Below are positions 2,124 through 61,573 of a stretch of 64,000 nucleotides of DNA, piece by piece (the first letter of the stretch is position 1; each line of letters begins with the position of its first letter). Position numbers and translations under genes: made by a program. The stretch is taken from the sequence record MK327941.1; one strand, 5' to 3'. This stretch comes from Escherichia phage vB_EcoM_G37-3. The notes under the pieces are model-generated. The model had not been told where the DNA came from. It did no database searches and was given only the letters and a program-made list of their open reading frames with translations.

Positions 2124-2381
2124 TTAATTAAAATCTTCTTTGTCCATCTCTGCGTAGATTACATCCCACGCCCATAAATCAATAAACGCATTATATGTCA
2201 CGGTGCAATCGTTATCAATCACTTCTTTCGCATATTTCTTGATGTTTTCGTAGGAAACTTGCGGATTAATTTTGTGTTTACGAAGATGCGCATATTCATA
2301 CCTCAAACACTCCATAAACAGGTCCATCGATTTCTTTTCTCGATGACACTTGGCGATCATAAAATCAAAACTTCGACTCAT
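2124..2381 (-). CDS. hypothetical protein (85 aa)
   Basis: ORF with AGGAG RBS 6 nt upstream of ATG at 2381. Confidence 0.5.
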   Translation of the reverse strand: MSRSFDFMIAKCHREKKSMDLFMECLRYEYAHLRKHKINPQVSYENIKKYAKEVIDNDCTVTYNAFIDLWAWDVIYAEMDKEDFN

Positions 2382-2391
2382 TTTCTACTCC

Positions 2392-2586
2392 TTATACATT
2401 TTCAATCACCCATTGCAGATGGGCTTCTGCGTCAACCAGTTCAGCGCGGCTTTTCTCTAAGCACTTGCTGTATTCTTTACGTTCCCAATCAGCTATTTCG
2501 TTTTTCAAGACTTCTTCATAGTAAGCAATTACGCCTTTCAGATCGGAAACTTTACGGCTTGCCAGTTCGATGTAATGGTTACGCAT
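2392..2586 (-). CDS. hypothetical protein (64 aa)
   Basis: ORF tightly packed between neighbours on the same strand. Confidence 0.4.
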   Translation of the reverse strand: MRNHYIELASRKVSDLKGVIAYYEEVLKNEIADWERKEYSKCLEKSRAELVDAEAHLQWVIENV

Positions 2587-2782
2587 TTTGATTCTCCTTT
2601 GTTACTAGATAACGAATTTGGTCTTGCATTGCGATCAGTTCCCAGCGTGCTACTTTCATCATGGAAACCGACTCTTTGAACATAATATTAGCTTTTTCCT
2701 TATTCCCTGTCAAGTAGATTTCTGCAATTTTTTCACAAAATTTTTGAGTTTCTTCATTCTTAAACGGTTTCATATAAGTCAA
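2579..2782 (-). CDS. hypothetical protein (67 aa)
   Basis: ATG at 2782 behind AAAGGTTGA RBS and its own early promoter. Confidence 0.5.
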   Translation of the reverse strand: MTYMKPFKNEETQKFCEKIAEIYLTGNKEKANIMFKESVSMMKVARWELIAMQDQIRYLVTKENQNA

Positions 2783-2802
2783 CCTTTTGTTTTCGATGGG
2801 GA

Positions 2803-2832
2803 CATTATGATATATCCCCGATCCAGTGTCAA
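2803..2832 (-). promoter_or_regulatory. sigma70-like early promoter (PeSL-type), TTGACA-N17-CATAAT
   Basis: -35 TTGACA and -10 CATAAT on minus strand; -10 flanked by inverted repeat GGGGA/TCCCC; coordinates approximate. Confidence 0.55.
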
Positions 2833-2839
2833 CAGATTT

Positions 2840-3139
2840 TTAATCTTTTTTCAATGCATCCATTACTCGCTCTGCGATCAGTTCTCGTAAGCACTGATAA
2901 CCATGATATTTGATGGCAATGTCACGCAGATCATTAACCAGTTCCCGTACTTCATGGTCTTTCAGATCGTCTCTGTATTTCGATTTAACCGTGTCTTTAG
3001 GTGGATTGTGGATAACCTGAAAACCTTGTTCTGCAATCAATGCGGCTTCGCGCTGGCGTTCATGCTGTACTGTATTTTTGATCAGGTCTGCTTCCATGAA
3101 CTTTGCCATACTCATCATCATGTTATTCTTTTTGCTCAT
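2840..3139 (-). CDS. hypothetical protein (99 aa)
   Basis: Internal ATG at 3139 behind GAGGA RBS; track start lacks an RBS. Confidence 0.5.
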   Translation of the reverse strand: MSKKNNMMMSMAKFMEADLIKNTVQHERQREAALIAEQGFQVIHNPPKDTVKSKYRDDLKDHEVRELVNDLRDIAIKYHGYQCLRELIAERVMDALKKD

Positions 3140-3173
3140 CGTTAAATCCTCATAAAAGAAAAGGGAGACTCCC

Positions 3174-3201
3174 ATTATAGAGAATCTCCCTTGTATGTCA
3201 A
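3174..3201 (-). promoter_or_regulatory. sigma70-like early promoter (PeSL-type), TTGACA-N16-TATAAT
   Basis: -35/-10 on minus strand with GGGAGA/TCTCCC inverted repeat around -10; approximate. Confidence 0.55.
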
Positions 3202-3761
3202 CTAAAATTTAAAGATGCAAACTCCCCGTGATGAATTTTTGCATATTCATCATATGCTCTAGCGGCTTCCTCCTGAGTAGCAAACGATCCTATGTATTTT
3301 CTGTATCCGTTTATCCTTATTTGTGCTTGCCACGGTCTTTTGCTAGATCCTTTGCGATGAGTAACACCATTATATATGCTCGTGCACCCGTCCATTTTCT
3401 TTTTATTGTACATGTTTTGTTGTTGTGTTGCCTCCCGTAAATTTGGTGGATTGTTGTTTTCTGGATTCCCGTCTATGTGGTCTATTACCTTAACCTGTGT
3501 TCCATATTCAAGAAACCAGACAATTCTATGTACAAGATATGTAGATGTTCTCTTTTTAACCTTATTGTAAACATCTATTGCCAAATGACCGTAATTTAAC
3601 TTTTTTGTTTTTACTTTATCACCGACTTGGTAGAAATATCCCTCTGGTAGACCATTAAAAGACGGACTATTTGTTTTGTGATATAGAACACCTTCCGTGT
3701 GTTCAAATCTGCGTTTTAATTCCTCTTGAATTTCAGTATTCCAAAATTTCGCACTTTTCAT
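3198..3761 (-). CDS. HNH homing endonuclease with C-terminal AP2 DNA-binding domain
   Basis: HNH motif HIDGNPENNNPPNL; AP2-like YNGVTHRKGSSKRPWQAQIRINGYRKYIGSFATQEEAARAYDEYA; directly downstream of gp39. Confidence 0.8.
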   Translation of the reverse strand: MKSAKFWNTEIQEELKRRFEHTEGVLYHKTNSPSFNGLPEGYFYQVGDKVKTKKLNYGHLAIDVYNKVKKRTSTYLVHRIVWFLEYGTQVKVIDHIDGNPENNNPPNLREATQQQNMYNKKKMDGCTSIYNGVTHRKGSSKRPWQAQIRINGYRKYIGSFATQEEAARAYDEYAKIHHGEFASLNFS

Positions 3762-3762
3762 A

Positions 3763-5586
3763 TTATGACGCCATCCATGCCTTCCTCATGTCTGAATCTT
3801 CGCTATAGAGCAAATCGAATAGCTCTTTATAGTTTTCCGGTAACGTGATGATCTCCATGACAGGATCGTTGATCACGCGATGATAATCTGATTCTGTGAG
3901 CGATGCTAAACCTTTGATATATCGAATGTTGTAACCTTTGATATTATCTCGGTCGTTCTCGAAATCTTCTAGGTCATAATACCATCGAACATCATCACCT
4001 TTCTTTGGTTCCGCAATGATAATAGGTGTTTTGATAAACCGGATTCGTCCATCTTCGAACAATTCAGGCCAACGTGCAAAGAAAGAGATCAGACTAGGTT
4101 TAATAGACCCGATCCCGTCAGTATCAGCGTCGGTCATAATCGCAATATTTTTGTATTGCATAACTTCCAATGCATCAACACCAAATTGCAAGCCAGTGAT
4201 CGCCATGATGTTAAAAATTTCGGCGTTCTTAACGATCTTTGCCTCCGGTTGTTCCCACGTTGTAAGAGTTTTGCCTCGCAACGGGAAACCTCCATGTAAA
4301 TCTTGATCACGTACAGAGATCAGATAGTTGATCGCGGAATCACCTTCCGTCAAAAACAGGGTAGTTTCTGCGTCAGTTCCAATAAGGTTAGCTTTAACGT
4401 GTTTTGCCACCTTAGCCCGTTTCGCTGCCTTTGCTGCCTTAGTCGCTGCCGCTTTATCTGCTGCCTCTTTGCGTGCCAGGACTACAGCAATAATAGGCAT
4501 GATAATGTTTTCTTTCTTAGCAATGACTTTAGCCAGCTTTTTAAAATCAAGATCAATATGACGCTTGATATCACCAGTCGGGTTAGTCAAGCGTTCTTTT
4601 GTCTGTGAATCAAAACGAAGGTTAGGCAATTCACGAACAATAAGAATACAGGTCAATCCAGACTTAACCGCAGCTTTAGTAACATCAACCTTATATTCTT
4701 TCTTGATTCGTTTTACAATCTCTTCACAAAGATCATCTGTCACATAATCAACGTGTGTTCCCCCGTTTTTGGTAAACAGACCGTTAGCAAAGGATACTGA
4801 TTTAAAACCTTCTCCCTCGACCGCAGGAACTAGGGCAAGTGAAAAGTTTTTATCTTCAATGACAAACGGATCATCATTGTATAGTTTAGCATAATCCTTG
4901 AACTTGCTGGTTATCTTTTTGCCATTAAACTTAAACGTGATCTTAGGAAAGATTACACTCAATGAATACATTCGATCGCAAATCACATCTGAAATTTCTT
5001 GTGACATGATCATACCTTCAAAATGATCGAAATCGGGGCAGAACGTAACCTTAGTTCCTTTCAGTTTTGACGGCTTAGATGACCAGCTAATATTTTCTGC
5101 ACCATTGGTACATTGAACGGTCAGTTCATTCTCTCCGTCACACGTCACACCAGTAAACCAGGACGAGAAAAATGATGTGAGCGCGCTTCCGATCCCATTC
5201 ATACCCATAGTAACACGATTTGTATCATCAAAGTTAGACCCTGCTTTAGCTCGTGTCCATGCAGCAACTGGTTGTGGAATCTGTTTCCCTTCTGGCGTCG
5301 TAACAATATGTTGCGGAATACCGCGACCATTATCTGTTACTGACACAATGTTATCTTTTATATCCACACTAATAACATTAGCGTACTCAAAATTCGTGCG
5401 GATCGCCTCGTCTACAGAGTTGTCGATAATTTCATCAATAATTTTAACTAGACCAGGAACATATGACACTTTGGTCCATTTTCCAAATAGGAAACGATTA
5501 TGTGATTCATAAGTCGTTGACCCGATGTACATTGAAGGTCTCTTAAGACAGTGAGCGCGATCATCTAACAGTAAAAATTCACTCAT
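3763..5586 (-). CDS. 39: DNA topoisomerase II large subunit gp39, unsplit (covers T4 gp39 plus gp60)
   Basis: 607-aa ORF; GHKL ATPase motifs IIDNSVDE, DNGRGIP, GGTHVDY, TOPRIM-like LFLTEGDSA; T4 has this split into genes 39 and 60. Confidence 0.9.
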   Translation of the reverse strand: MSEFLLLDDRAHCLKRPSMYIGSTTYESHNRFLFGKWTKVSYVPGLVKIIDEIIDNSVDEAIRTNFEYANVISVDIKDNIVSVTDNGRGIPQHIVTTPEGKQIPQPVAAWTRAKAGSNFDDTNRVTMGMNGIGSALTSFFSSWFTGVTCDGENELTVQCTNGAENISWSSKPSKLKGTKVTFCPDFDHFEGMIMSQEISDVICDRMYSLSVIFPKITFKFNGKKITSKFKDYAKLYNDDPFVIEDKNFSLALVPAVEGEGFKSVSFANGLFTKNGGTHVDYVTDDLCEEIVKRIKKEYKVDVTKAAVKSGLTCILIVRELPNLRFDSQTKERLTNPTGDIKRHIDLDFKKLAKVIAKKENIIMPIIAVVLARKEAADKAAATKAAKAAKRAKVAKHVKANLIGTDAETTLFLTEGDSAINYLISVRDQDLHGGFPLRGKTLTTWEQPEAKIVKNAEIFNIMAITGLQFGVDALEVMQYKNIAIMTDADTDGIGSIKPSLISFFARWPELFEDGRIRFIKTPIIIAEPKKGDDVRWYYDLEDFENDRDNIKGYNIRYIKGLASLTESDYHRVINDPVMEIITLPENYKELFDLLYSEDSDMRKAWMAS

Positions 5587-10274: not shown

Positions 10275-11204
10275 ATGAACTATAAACGTATTTATGATAA
10301 CCTGATTGAACGTGCTAAGACTCGAACTATCGACGGATATACAGAAAAGCATCACATCATACCACGTTGTATGAATGGAAGCGATGATGATAGCAATCTA
10401 GTTAGACTCACCCCAGAGGAACATTACATTGCTCACCTTCTGTTAGTTAAGATTTATCCAGATAACAGTAAATTGGTTTATGCTGCAAATATGATGTGCG
10501 TTTCTTCTGATTCACATAATGGAGAAAGACAGTCAAATAAACGTCATGGTTGGTTGCGTAGAAAAATGGCAGAGGCACATAGTAAAAGAATCCGCGATAG
10601 AATGGAGAACGATCCTGAATATAGAGCTAAGGTTTCGGAATGGGCTAGAAAAATGGGTAAAGCTATGAAAGGAGTTAAACGAGGACCGGAATTTAGCAGA
10701 AAGTTGGCAGAAAGAAACAGAAATACCGTGATGAAAGAAGAAACTAAACGTAAAATCGGGGAAGCCAACAAAGGAAGGAAACGTACAGAAGAATATAAAA
10801 GAAAACATAGTGAGCGGTATAAGGGTGAAGGTAATCCGATGTATGGTAAACGAGGAAAGGACCATCCGGCATATGGTACTAAACCGTGGAACAACCAAAC
10901 ATCATTTGTTGAGCAGAAAGCATGGTGGCGTTTCGCTGGCATGTTCTATGACTGGTATCAGAGAGATATTGACCGTGGAACACATAAACGCCACGGCCAT
11001 AAGAGAATGTTAGACGAGTTAGGTTTTGTTGGTTGGCGAGAAAAAGAGCCAGCCGCAGCAAGACGGTCAATTGAGATGTTCGCTAAAGGCTGGAATCCTT
11101 ATGAAGACCAAGAATGGTTAGATTATGTTAATACCCGCTTTCCAAACGACGATAGTTTTCCGCGTTCTTCAACATATACAAGACAAACAGATCTTTCGCA
11201 GTAA
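10275..11204 (+). CDS. HNH homing endonuclease with NUMOD3-like repeats
   Basis: HNH motif EKHHIIPRCMNGSDDDSNLVRLTPEEHYIAH; repeats GNPMYGKRGKDHPAYG; GGAG RBS; only sizeable plus-strand gene in the region. Confidence 0.85.
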   Translation: MNYKRIYDNLIERAKTRTIDGYTEKHHIIPRCMNGSDDDSNLVRLTPEEHYIAHLLLVKIYPDNSKLVYAANMMCVSSDSHNGERQSNKRHGWLRRKMAEAHSKRIRDRMENDPEYRAKVSEWARKMGKAMKGVKRGPEFSRKLAERNRNTVMKEETKRKIGEANKGRKRTEEYKRKHSERYKGEGNPMYGKRGKDHPAYGTKPWNNQTSFVEQKAWWRFAGMFYDWYQRDIDRGTHKRHGHKRMLDELGFVGWREKEPAAARRSIEMFAKGWNPYEDQEWLDYVNTRFPNDDSFPRSSTYTRQTDLSQ

Positions 11205-49661: not shown

Positions 49662-49828
49662 TTACATTTAGGGCAATGCGGTTCTTTAATATAATACCCG
49701 TCTGTCTTTGGAACACTAACAGGAGCGGTTTTTATATTGTATTCAGTGAAACAACGAAAACAAGTTACGTTTTCTACAGACTGACGTTTCACCCAATCAC
49801 CGGAATATAGATCATTTTTATTTGTCAT
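49634..49828 (-). CDS. small zinc-ribbon-like protein (64 aa)
   Basis: CFRCF...CPKCKC; internal ATG at 49828. Confidence 0.4.
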   Translation of the reverse strand: MTNKNDLYSGDWVKRQSVENVTCFRCFTEYNIKTAPVSVPKTDGYYIKEPHCPKCKCRLYWSHL

Positions 49829-50273
49829 ATTCAACCACCACAATGTTAATGTCTGGAGTAGCAATATTAATGATCTCTTCTACACATTCCCACTCAAGGC
49901 CACCGATACCGCAACCGATTTTAGGAATATAGAAAGGCTGTATAGCACCTTCAAAAACATCATTGATAGTCTCAAATCCTTTCAGGATAGCACCATATTC
50001 AGCATTTGGACCCGGTCGGAATTGGGTATAGAGATTCACCCCGCACCAGTTATAACCATTAACTTGATGCGTCCAGACACTAAACCCACCCAGCTTTTCT
50101 ACCTTACCGCGAGAAGTTTGCTTGTCAATCTCTAACGCTTGCGGGAACTCTTTCGCGATCTTTGCAGCAATACCAGCGCCCATAGTATGAAAACAATTAC
50201 AACCATGAATTAAATGACCGTTTCCTTGTTTAAACAGGGCGATGAGATCGCCCTTTACAGTATCAATAATCAT
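49818..50273 (-). CDS. macrodomain protein, TARG1/OARD1-like (putative ADP-ribosyl hydrolase)
   Basis: VKGDLIALFKQGNGHLIHGCNCFHTMGAGIAAKIAKEF matches the OARD1/TARG1 GDLF...HC.S.D..MGAGIA signature; GAGAGGTTTATATT leader. Confidence 0.7.
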   Translation of the reverse strand: MIIDTVKGDLIALFKQGNGHLIHGCNCFHTMGAGIAAKIAKEFPQALEIDKQTSRGKVEKLGGFSVWTHQVNGYNWCGVNLYTQFRPGPNAEYGAILKGFETINDVFEGAIQPFYIPKIGCGIGGLEWECVEEIINIATPDINIVVVEYDK

Positions 50274-51332: not shown

Positions 51333-51755
51333 TTATTGGTCTACCTTCAAAACAACCGCCGACATTTTACCCGCCAGTCGTTTTGGATTCTCTATAATCA
51401 TTCGGCAGCATAGACCGTGATATGGCTTACCCTCTTCGATTAGATCTACTGTCATCCCGATCCACATGTTACCGTCAGTAATTTCTAATCGATTCGGTCG
51501 GTCTTCCATTTTCAGGAAGTCGAAGATCTCCGGCAAACGAGTTTCTATCTTATTGAATAGTTCCATTGTCTTATGTTCATCGATATGACGATCGGTTAGA
51601 CGGTCGATCATATGCGGACTAAAGCGAATGAAAATATACTCACCATAACCATCATTCAAGCACTTTTCTTTGATCTTCGCATTGGTTTTGCGCATTTCGG
51701 TTTCGAAGAATCTACGCAGCTTACTACGGCGAACATGTACGTTAATTGTTTCCAT
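51333..51755 (-). CDS. hypothetical protein (140 aa)
   Basis: Internal ATG at 51755 behind AAGGA RBS. Confidence 0.45.
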   Translation of the reverse strand: METINVHVRRSKLRRFFETEMRKTNAKIKEKCLNDGYGEYIFIRFSPHMIDRLTDRHIDEHKTMELFNKIETRLPEIFDFLKMEDRPNRLEITDGNMWIGMTVDLIEEGKPYHGLCCRMIIENPKRLAGKMSAVVLKVDQ

Positions 51756-51759
51756 TTTA

Positions 51760-52095
51760 TTATCCTTTCTTAAACAAATTGCGAATCCAGTATACAAACG
51801 GGATTTCTTTAAACTTGAACTTGTCAATAGTTAATTCTTTAGTAGCAAGATGAATACCATAAGCATCATGTGTCACGATATGCCATTTTCTATAGTCCAA
51901 ATGTGAACAACCGTCTGGATCTAGGTTAATAAGAGTTTCTCGCTCACTAGGATTATTTTTCCACAATTTTGTAATAGGATCGCACATAATTCGACCTAGC
52001 GTACCATGAATAATCTCACAACGGTAAAGTTTTCCAGCAGTGAGATAGGCGCACCCGTCATAGTCTGTATAAACAAACACTTCTTTAACACTCAT
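51760..52095 (-). CDS. small protein, GCSHL-motif tandem paralog A
   Basis: DPDGCSHLDYRKWHIV; AAGGAGTATTAAA leader after an early promoter. Confidence 0.45.
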   Translation of the reverse strand: MSVKEVFVYTDYDGCAYLTAGKLYRCEIIHGTLGRIMCDPITKLWKNNPSERETLINLDPDGCSHLDYRKWHIVTHDAYGIHLATKELTIDKFKFKEIPFVYWIRNLFKKG

Positions 52096-52123
52096 TTTAA
52101 TACTCCTTTGTTTCGATGGGGGT

Positions 52124-52152
52124 ATATTACTACCCCCGTTTTGTTGTGTCAA
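52124..52152 (-). promoter_or_regulatory. early promoter (PeSL-type) TTGACA-N17-TAATAT
   Basis: -10 inside GGGGGTA/TACCCCC inverted repeat; approximate. Confidence 0.5.
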
Positions 52153-52398
52153 CTACTTTTTCAAGATTTTTTTAATTGCGTTCCAAAGACCTTTATTCTC
52201 AGGTTGTTTTGGTTCTTCGATCAGTGTCCAGGTTCGACCGTCTAAGTGTGCACAATTTTTAAGACAAATAAAAATCTGGTGTCCTTTATCATCACGGATA
52301 TAACCACTATTCGCAAATCTTTCATGTGGTGTATATTCATACAGTGTATTTGGTGTAATATACTTGCGGTTACTATAAGGTGTCATCACATACATCAT
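52153..52398 (-). CDS. small protein, GCSHL-motif tandem paralog B
   Basis: ICLKNCAHLDGRTWTLI; ATGA overlap with paralog C. Confidence 0.45.
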   Translation of the reverse strand: MMYVMTPYSNRKYITPNTLYEYTPHERFANSGYIRDDKGHQIFICLKNCAHLDGRTWTLIEEPKQPENKGLWNAIKKILKK

Positions 52399-52589
52399 GG
52401 TACTAACTCCCATTTATCACCGCGAAGATGAGAACATCCACCATCAAGAAGGATCGTAATACGAAACCCCGCATCATCTTCAATATACCCGATAGTCGGT
52501 GGATTTTCGTCGTCTCGTGTCGGGGTAAAATCATACATCTTTCCGGGCGTAATATCTTGTCCTTTATTACTATTGGTATAAACTTGCAT
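52395..52589 (-). CDS. small protein, GCSHL-motif tandem paralog C
   Basis: LLDGGCSHLRGDKWELV; GGAGA RBS. Confidence 0.45.
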   Translation of the reverse strand: MQVYTNSNKGQDITPGKMYDFTPTRDDENPPTIGYIEDDAGFRITILLDGGCSHLRGDKWELVP

Positions 52590-52610: not shown

Positions 52611-53309
52611 CTAACCACGGGTATAGTGTTCCAGAACAACGGTCAGATGAATATATTCTAATAAATCCTTCCAAAAGTCAACATCTGGTTCTTCCGGCAT
52701 ACCGTTTTTCTTTGCCTCTTCACGCGCGAGTTTAACACGCTCGTAGAGATCTTTCAATTCTTCCCGCACATTATCAAAGGTTCTTTCTCCTAACTTACAC
52801 GCTAAAATAGAAGAACGTCGCGCGAGCGGGAATTGTAGATCACCAGTTTGATAGATTTCAAGTAGCTGATAACCAACACGCAGAGCATGAGAAAGATCTT
52901 TCCAGTTACTGAAATACTTTTCAGATTTTGCTACCTGCTTTTTGAGATAACCAGACAAACCCCACATCCCAACATGATAGAATTTATCGCGATGTGTTCT
53001 GATGTATTCCCATTCTCTGGAGGATTCAATCAACATGTTACTAGGCGCGTGCACCATGTCAATAGCGCCGATATCGCCTTTACATGCCAGATTGATAAAC
53101 CGTTTTAGACTGAACATATTAACGTCAATATCGTCTTTGGTGTTCTTGATACCTTGACCGCTAGTGCTTTGGTCATAGTGTTCTTTCATCGATCCTAAGA
53201 TAATTTCTTTCGCAGTCGGAACAAAGATACCACGATAATCTTTATCTGAATTTTCAGTATCAAGGCCGTATAAGTGAGATCCGAAGACCATTTTAACCAT
53301 AGTATGCAT
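52611..53309 (-). CDS. Pol-beta superfamily nucleotidyltransferase, function unknown
   Basis: 232 aa; NTase signature GS-x9-DxD (FGSHLYGLDTENSDKDY) and downstream DIDV; helical C-terminal half; GAGGG RBS. Confidence 0.6.
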   Translation of the reverse strand: MHTMVKMVFGSHLYGLDTENSDKDYRGIFVPTAKEIILGSMKEHYDQSTSGQGIKNTKDDIDVNMFSLKRFINLACKGDIGAIDMVHAPSNMLIESSREWEYIRTHRDKFYHVGMWGLSGYLKKQVAKSEKYFSNWKDLSHALRVGYQLLEIYQTGDLQFPLARRSSILACKLGERTFDNVREELKDLYERVKLAREEAKKNGMPEEPDVDFWKDLLEYIHLTVVLEHYTRG

Positions 53310-53327
53310 AATTAAACCCTCAGTTGA

Positions 53328-53921
53328 TTAAACGTATTCAGCGACAACATTGTGTTTAAAATTACCACTTCTTTTTGGATTTGGATTTTTCAATCGACTA
53401 TGTATTAAATTTTTGTTATATCCGGTTGCTTTAGACGCTTCTCCAATACTTTGATAAACAACACCATCAACACGAATCGGACGAGACTTATTAAACAGTT
53501 TATTCAATCCGGTATCATATGCATGGTTTTGGTTTTCTTGTCTTGTTGCGATCTCAAGATTCCAAACACAATTACAAGATTTTACCCCACTTTTATGATT
53601 AATTTCAAGCCCTTCACAATCACCTATAAAGTGTTCAGCGACTAGTCTATGAATATAGCGATATTTCTTAGTTTCCCCGTCATGCAAGCATACATTATAA
53701 TAACCATCACCAGCGCGTTTAGGTCGGAGTAGTTTACCTTTAACACGTTTTATAGTAGGGAACTCACCAAATTGATTTCGCTGGATAAAAGGAATCTCTC
53801 GGTCAAGTGAACGGATTCGACCATAGTTAGATACTTGATAAAACCCCCCATAGCCCTTAATCTGCTTCCATATCTCGGGGATTTCAACACCATCAATAAC
53901 AACAAGTTTAAGTTCTTCCAT
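53328..53921 (-). CDS. HNH homing endonuclease (NUMOD4-like plus HNH_3-type)
   Basis: YQVSNYGRIRS, HRLVAEHF...NHKSG...NLEIATRQENQNH; GAGGTG RBS. Confidence 0.85.
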   Translation of the reverse strand: MEELKLVVIDGVEIPEIWKQIKGYGGFYQVSNYGRIRSLDREIPFIQRNQFGEFPTIKRVKGKLLRPKRAGDGYYNVCLHDGETKKYRYIHRLVAEHFIGDCEGLEINHKSGVKSCNCVWNLEIATRQENQNHAYDTGLNKLFNKSRPIRVDGVVYQSIGEASKATGYNKNLIHSRLKNPNPKRSGNFKHNVVAEYV

Positions 53922-53933
53922 ATATCACCTCAT

Positions 53934-53964
53934 AAAAATAAAGCCAACCCTTTCGGATTGGCTT
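53934..53964 (-). terminator. intrinsic terminator
   Basis: Minus strand AAGCCAATCCGAAAGGGTTGGCTT followed by TATTTTTAT. Confidence 0.6.
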
Positions 53965-53969
53965 GTGTA

Positions 53970-54386
53970 TTACATAGATTCCGTAAAGGTACGGGTGATA
54001 ATATCAAGTTGCTGTTCGCGTGTCAAGGCATTGAAGCGGGTAGCATAACCACTGATTCGAATTGTAAGCTGCGGGTACTTTTCAGGATTTTCTAACGCAT
54101 CAAGAAGAGTCTCCCGACGCAGTACGTTCGCGTTTAGGTGCATTCCCCCTTCGATAATCGGTTTACCCGCATCGATTTCGCAAATTCGAAAATTGGTCTT
54201 ATGCAGCGCCAGCGAATCGACGTCTTCTGCGGTGATCACATGGTCTTCTGCGAAAGTTTTACTAACAATTACTTTAGCGCCGATCAGTGCTTTCGGTTCG
54301 GATACCAGAATCATAGGCGCGAAGTGTCCACCAATAATAGTACCTTTATGCTCACCTTTCATGATTTGAATTGCTTTAAATTCCAT
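53970..54386 (-). CDS. autonomous glycyl radical cofactor (GrcA/YfiD-like; T4 Y06I-type)
   Basis: C-terminal [15 protein letters not shown]...[37 protein letters not shown] is near-identical to the GrcA glycyl radical domain. Confidence 0.85.
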
Positions 54387-61102: not shown

Positions 61103-61573
61103 TTACAGTTTGGTCGTCCACTCCAGGTCTAGATCTTCGACATACTCATGAGATCGGACAATCTCTAAATCGAACTCTAGGTCAGTGCCAAATTTACGCG
61201 CACCAACATCATAAGAAAGCGTGATATGCGGTACATATTCAGGATAATCCCACGTCGCACCTAAAGCAGTGCCGATATCGTGTCTGAATTGCATGTAGTC
61301 GCTTTCAAATGCCAACACAAGTGCATTAGTACCGGATTGAGTTTCAAACACTTTCAGATGACACAGAGAGCCTAAGAACTTCTCCCCTTCTTCTGGGATA
61401 AACGGAACATAGACACGAGAATATAAGATAGTGCTATGCAGTTTATCACGAGGAACGGCATTAGGCAGATCGTAGAACTCCTGCAATTTTTCAATGCGGT
61501 CTAGTGTATCCTCAGTGAATTTAACCGCCGCATATGTACCTTTAACGGATTCTCTAAACGGGGTCATAATCAA
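61103..61573 (-). CDS. 57B: 2H phosphoesterase, T4 gene 57B (Acb1) homolog
   Basis: 156 aa; two H-x-[TS]-x motifs (HSTIL, HITLS); sits downstream of 57A and gene 1 as in T4. Confidence 0.7.
   Translation of the reverse strand: MIMTPFRESVKGTYAAVKFTEDTLDRIEKLQEFYDLPNAVPRDKLHSTILYSRVYVPFIPEEGEKFLGSLCHLKVFETQSGTNALVLAFESDYMQFRHDIGTALGATWDYPEYVPHITLSYDVGARKFGTDLEFDLEIVRSHEYVEDLDLEWTTKL

Follow-up and report, generated by a model that had tools for sequence, protein, structure and literature searches.

Our results place the 232-aa nucleotidyltransferase (NTase) analyzed here in the RlaP family and identify it as the Krischvirus homologue of T4 NrdC.11. The protein probably puts back lost nucleotides during tRNA/RNA repair by the phage. 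Next to it lies an HNH gene that, judged from its sequence and distribution, is an independent free-standing homing endonuclease gene and is uninformative on NTase function. The name nrdC.11 is already in use in RB49-type genomes, the assignment to the RlaP RNA-repair family is already known, and both the literature and public annotation already offered a function at the level of the family. The main value of this work is one of correct filing, in that an apparently mysterious phage NTase is nrdC.11.

In the window, the whole 64-kb stretch of DNA that was analyzed, nrdC.11 occupies 52611-53309 and the HNH gene 53328-53921 (197 aa), both on the minus strand. The 18-nt spacer between them (53310-53327, minus strand) contains GAGGG, the ribosome-binding site of nrdC.11, as well as TAA, the stop codon of the HNH gene. 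Both open reading frames are as given in a preliminary description of the locus, and both are genuine rather than chance. The next gene upstream of the HNH gene in transcription order is vs.6 (53970-54386, minus strand; the name is that used for T4-type phages), which codes for a 138-aa GrcA/YfiD-like autonomous glycyl-radical cofactor (Gly_radical in Pfam, 2.7e-15; GrcA models in NCBIfam). A hairpin that resembles a terminator, with a T-run after AAGCCAATCCGAAAGGGTTGGCTT (53941-53964, minus strand), is found directly 3' of vs.6. On the other side, regB (51333-51827, minus strand) lies about 800 bp downstream of nrdC.11. The gap between nrdC.11 and regB is filled by three tandem small paralogous ORFs (52395-52589, 52153-52413 and 51760-52152, all on the minus strand; phrog_6261 / phrog_15978), and in the region of these ORFs, around 52200-52550, the genomes that carry the HNH gene differ more from one another (up to ~10% divergence).

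A 3.1-kb stretch around the locus matched 58 phage records at 93-98% identity, among them RB49, Phi1, GEC-3S, ECD7, FL04 and MIZ4. All of them are Krischvirus, and therefore the window is part of an RB49-like T4-type coliphage genome; it is collinear with RB49 from rIIA onward, and its nearest relative is FL04. The window also encodes a Macro-domain protein homologous to Tk.4 (49818-50273, minus strand; Pfam Macro, 1.3e-6) and a homologue of the anti-CBASS 2H phosphodiesterase Acb1 (61103-61573, minus strand; PF23474, 1.5e-51), whose equivalent in the RB49 record, gene 57B, carries the label 'RNA ligase'. With RegB and NrdC.11 also encoded there, genes linked to RNA and nucleotide conflict are abundant in this early region.

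The NTase is identical or nearly identical to the proteins annotated as 'nrdC.11, nucleotidyltransferase' in RB49 and Phi1. In Pfam, its match to PF10127 (RlaP, 'RNA repair pathway DNA polymerase beta family') scores 53.6 bits where the gathering score is 23 (E=3.4e-14), with residues 7-191 aligned to model positions 24-198 of 249, and it also matches phrog_388 at 2e-79; no NCBIfam model matched either the NTase or the HNH protein. The gene is present in all 58 Krischvirus records, and tblastn detected homologues in 1619 phage records, most of them Straboviridae, plus Bacillus, Mycobacterium and Gordonia phages. The preliminary description had set the gene apart from the T4 core genes, a statement that has to be corrected for a homologue of T4 nrdC.11 so widely distributed. 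Across 14 Krischvirus genomes, 36 variable codons showed synonymous changes only, as against 4 that changed the amino acid, and nrdC.11 is thus under purifying selection. In public records its homologues are often misannotated as 'thioredoxin' or 'glutaredoxin nrdC' (FL20, AV108, ELT3 and many UniRef entries), labels apparently carried over from the gene name, and one record calls its homologue an 'HNH homing endonuclease'.

The Pol-beta catalytic signature, hG[GS], [DE]x[DE] and a third carboxylate, is present in the translation as F9-G10-S11, D22-K23-D24 and D59-D60-I61-D62-V63. The signature had been described as GS-x9-DxD with a downstream DIDV; the motifs are there, but the spacing from S11 to D22 is ten residues, GS-x10-DxD. 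G10, S11, D22, D24 and D62 are invariant in an alignment of 14 phage homologues and also in 14 relatives with identities down to 25%, including those encoded at RtcB-adjacent bacterial loci, and the motif residues align with the invariant NTase catalytic positions. In the helical domain, K137 and R144 are conserved and H141 is nearly so.

Structure prediction agreed with these assignments. The AlphaFold (AF2) model, built on an alignment, was confident (pLDDT 89.4, pTM 0.86) and has a beta/alpha N-terminal half followed by five long C-terminal helices, with the canonical strand-(GS)-helix-strand(DxD) arrangement and the third Asp on a later strand (residues 62-67). This supports the earlier description of a Pol-beta-type NTase in which the catalytic domain comes first and a helical domain follows. 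In a viral structure library, the top non-identical matches were phage 'nucleotidyltransferases' with TM-scores of about 0.8 (normalized to the query), and the closest solved folds are all enzymes, namely HalB, kanamycin, lincosamide and spectinomycin NTases, and Tam41; the matches are two-domain NTases, and a non-enzymatic fold was not the best match. Sequence and profile searches with the NTase for a solved RlaP in the PDB gave only insignificant matches. An active HEPN RNase was considered for the C-terminal helical domain and rejected, as the Rx4-6H motif is absent from the sequence.

As related in PMC12776372 and PMC7824862, the name RlaP was given to PF10127 by Burroughs and Aravind (2016), because many of its members sit in RNA-ligase operons. 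Biochemical knowledge of the family is limited to two bacterial enzymes, from Pseudomonas fluorescens (PfRlaP) and P. aeruginosa (PaRlaP), which add 1-2 NMP to RNA 3'-OH ends according to an unreviewed preprint of 2025 (PMC12776372). These enzymes discriminate little between NTPs and can label rRNA, full-length tRNA or pieces of tRNA, with a preference for the 5' half of a cleaved-tRNA mimic, while DNA is not extended and proteins are not labeled (PMC12776372). The same work showed that RlaP partly rescues the aminoacylation of a tRNA from which a nucleotide was lost before ligation, and presented a crystal structure with an N-terminal NTase domain, a C-terminal helical domain and three strictly conserved Asp residues (PMC12776372). 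T4 NrdC.11 was explicitly placed in the RlaP family, in cluster 5 of a sequence similarity network (SSN) in which the assayed enzymes belong to cluster 1a (PMC12776372). In jumbo phages, the distribution of RlaP mirrors that of RNA ligases (PMC7824862).

The view that the substrate cannot be read from sequence therefore seems too pessimistic, since RlaP membership makes RNA 3'-OH ends, the substrate shown for the two bacterial members (PMC12776372), the likely target of the NTase. In the mechanism that we propose, D22, D24 and D62 would hold two divalent ions, Mn2+ being preferred by the characterized RlaPs (PMC12776372), the N-terminal domain would bind the NTP in its acidic pocket, and the 3' end of the RNA would occupy the cleft, facing the helices of the C-terminal domain. 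Host anticodon nucleases can, like RloC, excise a nucleotide in addition to cutting the tRNA. The damaged ends would then be healed by Pnkp (pseT), which would turn 2',3'-cyclic-P/5'-OH ends into 3'-OH/5'-P ends, refilled by NrdC.11, which would re-add template-independently the nucleotide or nucleotides taken by the nuclease, and sealed by RNA ligase 1 (Rnl1, rnlA), which needs exactly a 3'-OH/5'-P pair. Both the RNA-tailing activity of NrdC.11 and this heal-refill-seal pathway are what we infer from an established family membership.

The other components of such a pathway are found throughout the genus. In RB49, pseT and rnlA are located at 127.7-130.6 kb, and this block is present at no less than 95% identity in every one of the 58 Krischvirus records, FL04 among them. 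The 64-kb window itself holds no RNA ligase, Pnkp or tRNA genes, and for this phage rnlA and pseT, which fall outside the window, are known from its relatives. The link between nrdC.11 and these genes is one of co-occurrence only, since they are not adjacent and are ~75 kb apart in RB49, but the genus-wide co-occurrence with Pnkp and Rnl1 is a point worth keeping. RnlA, PseT and RtcB genes were sought at 80 bacterial/MAG loci that code for NTase relatives. An RtcB gene was found within 6 kb in 8 of these loci, where we estimate a chance of ~0.3% per locus for a single-copy gene; tblastn with RB49 RnlA and PseT gave no matches in the 80 loci, and RtcB alone was detected.

Some observations weigh against the repair reading. 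The assayed RlaPs come from a different PF10127 sub-cluster (1a versus 5) and from an unreviewed preprint (PMC12776372), and the nearest solved fold, HalB, makes DNA and not RNA extensions. The substrate range of the short NrdC.11 could also differ, since it lacks a ~105-aa insert present in T4-type NrdC.11. Moreover, T4 nrdC.11 is within a block that can be deleted from a viable genome-reduced T4 (PMC9825161), and any role of NrdC.11 is conditional, given that the gene is dispensable in the laboratory.

The strongest competing explanation is that NrdC.11 tails RNA 3' ends outside anticodon-loop repair, either by patching damaged tRNA 3'-CCA ends or by tagging or stabilizing transcripts of phage or host, such as fragments left by RegB. 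We regard this as rather unlikely, even though the family evidence speaks for it as much as for repair. The labeling of rRNA, tRNA and tRNA fragments with little regard to the NTP would suit such an enzyme, as would the position of nrdC.11 some 800 bp from regB and not by rnlA or pseT. However, the proximity to regB is not kept in T4-type phages, in which nrdC.11 is found between mobD and nrdC.10, the family-wide association is with RNA ligases (PMC7824862; RtcB at the loci of relatives), and the finding that RlaP favors the 5' half when offered a mimic of cleaved tRNA (PMC12776372) also speaks against this explanation.

The fact that HalB of the Hailong system (PDB 9dbh/9dbi/9dbj) is the closest solved structure raises a different reading. 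HalB is described as a protein-primed oligo-dA maker paired with the HalA channel, and a HalB-like NTase could make oligodeoxyadenylate, either free or primed by a protein, or some other oligonucleotide that serves as signal or decoy, perhaps to keep the HalA channel closed. Such a polymerase is very improbable here. The likeness to HalB amounts to 12-16% identity and TM-scores of about 0.4, the NTase belongs to another sequence family, scoring as RlaP, and the characterized RlaPs do not extend DNA (PMC12776372). HalB may merely be the nearest solved NTase with a helical domain, as PfRlaP was apparently not among the PDB structures compared. No PADLOC defense model gave a significant match to the NTase (a single match at E=0.03, from version 2.0.0, which may predate Hailong), and no gene for a partner effector, HalA-like or other, is found by the NTase gene, whose neighbors are vs.6, the HNH gene and the small ORFs. 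In a more specific form of the idea, the compact NrdC.11 would be a phage mimic of HalB, not (only) an RNA repair enzyme, and its oligodeoxyadenylate or other short polynucleotide would, while infection lasts, keep off defense effectors gated by nucleotides, such as HalA, a role that we consider barely credible.

Nor does an antibiotic-modifying or nucleotide-signaling function, both entertained in the preliminary description, find specific support. It is highly unlikely that NrdC.11 is a small-molecule NTase akin to the aminoglycoside and lincosamide enzymes (ANT/Lnu-like) or a protein-AMPylating MNT-type antitoxin. The fold matches to ANT(4'), LinB, AAD(9) and ANT(6), and the similarity of its C-terminal half to bundles of HEPN-like helices, would favor such an enzyme, but the likeness is at the fold level only, with zero Pfam or NCBIfam matches to ANT/Lnu or MNT families. 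Both a HEPN toxin partner and the Rx4-6H motif are absent; RlaPs did not label proteins (PMC12776372), and antibiotic modification is of no evident use to a lytic phage.

The neighbor of nrdC.11 was correctly recognized as an HNH homing endonuclease gene. Its product contains NUMOD4 (4e-17) and HNH_3 (2.5e-10) domains and a NUMOD1/I-TevI-like DNA-binding tail, with a weak match to the I-TevI DNA-binding domain that falls below the cut-off (5e-4), and it matches the PADLOC 'HEase' model at 6e-18. The gene occurs in 8 of the 58 Krischvirus records, with at least 94% identity and always at the same site, and beyond Krischvirus-like phages the relatives of the protein have less than 45% identity and are found in phages of Gram-positive bacteria and Bacteroidetes. 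Two further HNH genes, at 3198-3761 (minus strand) and 10275-11204 (plus strand) of the window, are absent from RB49 at those positions; one has HNH_3 and AP2 domains and abuts topoisomerase gene 39, and the other, on the opposite strand near genes 56/61, has NUMOD3 and a sub-threshold HNH match. With at least two more such genes in the window, an HNH neighbor is commonplace in this genome.

The insertion site could be defined by comparison with genomes free of the gene. In the 50 HNH-free relatives, a ~55-nt spacer separates the hairpin after vs.6, annotated as a terminator in GEC-3S, from nrdC.11. The hairpin is kept in HNH-carrying and HNH-free genomes alike, and in the carriers the inserted HNH gene comes directly after it. 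On the downstream side the Krischvirus allele resumes exactly at the HNH stop codon, and the 18-nt spacer at 53310-53327 is the downstream junction of the insertion; the spacer sequence TAATCAACTGAGGGTTTAATTATG is common to HNH-carrying genomes, HNH-free genomes and a divergent metagenomic contig, L099. This contig has the same order of a Gly_radical gene, a NUMOD4/HNH_3 gene and an RlaP gene, the last encoding a relative of the NTase, P0002.

When seven HNH-carrying genomes were compared with seven HNH-free genomes, nrdC.11 had zero fixed differences and 1-2% divergence, whereas the 3' ~210 nt of vs.6 (53966-54180, minus strand) had about 50 fixed differences and 20-40% divergence. In the protein, HNH carriers have a different allele over the C-terminal ~78 residues of Vs.6, and these mosaic residues include the region of the glycyl-radical motif. 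The window and L099 are near-identical over the last ~145 nt of vs.6, the hairpin and the ribosome-binding site of the HNH gene, while the remainder of the window vs.6 matches RB49. This contig is the only near-identical source of the foreign vs.6 3' end, and among deposited phages no donor closer than ~75% was found. One part of the foreign allele, at about 54090-54180, matches neither RB49 nor the contig.

Within the foreign end, upstream of the hairpin, there is a match to a sigma-70-like promoter, TTGACA-17-TG-TATTAT (53998-54026, minus strand; 11/12), which may drive the endonuclease gene. It is present in 7 of 7 HNH carriers compared, with TATCAT in JK32, and HNH-free genomes have CTGACT/CGTTAT at this site. 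Such a putative promoter fits the habit of T4 seg and mob genes of having their promoter in the upstream gene (PMC2988022).

The altered tract of vs.6 has the footprint expected from homing with one-sided co-conversion, and the position of this footprint suggests that the endonuclease target is in or near the vs.6 3' end, with the altered tract as its probable site. In this scenario, the HNH element entered the spacer between vs.6 and nrdC.11 in a minority of Krischvirus genomes and carried a foreign vs.6 3' end along, so that it travels with vs.6 and not with nrdC.11. The distribution of the HNH gene, the lack of fixed differences in nrdC.11 and the foreign end of vs.6 indicate that the NTase is a resident bystander and not cargo. 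Nature has here provided an uncluttered case of homing in which co-conversion is one-sided, and it suggests vs.6, and not the NTase gene, as the target; this tie to vs.6 is another point worth keeping. That the NTase is instead cargo of a mobile HNH cassette, as the preliminary description suggested, is extremely unlikely: the two genes are 18 nt apart on the same strand, their order recurs in the divergent contig and T4-type phages have the HNH gene mobD directly upstream of nrdC.11, but the NTase gene is universal in Krischvirus and the HNH gene is not, nrdC.11 shows no fixed difference between carriers and non-carriers and the stop codon of the HNH gene marks the exact junction, the window and the contig have HNH proteins that are 86% identical but NTases that are only 57% identical, and mobD is not homologous to the window HNH gene.

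Comparison with known systems places both genes more precisely. T4-like free-standing HNH genes (mobA-E; the NUMOD4/HNH_3 class is also known from Gram-positive phages) are intergenic, promoter-poor and located by a conserved gene (PMC2988022), and the patchy distribution and flanking co-conversion of the window HNH gene match the behavior described there. In the phage RB6 locus compared, mobD (2238-3017 of that locus) is directly upstream of nrdC.11 (3001-4011) and overlaps it by 17 nt. We considered whether the window HNH protein is T4 MobD, which has the same position, and rejected this as the two show no homology; since MobD is non-homologous, the equivalent position upstream of nrdC.11 holds two unrelated homing endonuclease genes in two lineages, a small new point.

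T4-type NrdC.11 (also known as Tk.-11) and its Straboviridae homologues are 300-344 aa long, 336 aa in RB6, as compared with 232 aa in Krischvirus. The window NTase aligns with the RB6 protein at both ends (E=3e-51, ~45% identity over the aligned parts), with homologous NTase domain (1-115) and helical region (136-222), and the invariant G-S, DxD and D residues of T4 NrdC.11 are identical to its own. The alignment is not collinear over the full length, since a central ~105-aa insert is absent from the Krischvirus form, which makes it a homologue in a shortened architecture. The genomic position differs as well, nrdC.11 being located between vs.6 and the small ORFs and regB in Krischvirus and between mobD and nrdC.10 in T4-type phages. 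The ~105-aa segment is also missing from P0002 (234 aa), the closest short relative, and from Bacillaceae and Zavarzinella relatives, and is present in RtcB-linked relatives (L016, L034, L059). P0002 covers positions 23-229 of the 249 of PF10127, and this contiguous coverage of the model indicates that the short NrdC.11 is a complete minimal core and not a truncated remnant. This minimal architecture without the ~105-aa segment is a second new point of the same modest kind. Because it is only 232 aa long and is encoded alongside Pnkp and Rnl1, Krischvirus NrdC.11 would be a convenient construct for a test of the heal-refill-seal pathway.

The bacterial RlaPs of P. fluorescens and P. aeruginosa, encoded in rtcB-rlaP-rtcA operons (PMC12776372), are members of the same Pfam family as the phage NTase, have in common with it the three strictly conserved Asp residues and, judged from the predicted structure, appear to have the same plan of an NTase and a helical domain, but they belong to another PF10127 sub-cluster (PMC12776372). 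They also differ in their ligase: the partner of the bacterial enzymes is the adjacent RtcB, whereas the likely partner of the phage NTase is the distantly encoded 5'-P ligase Rnl1.
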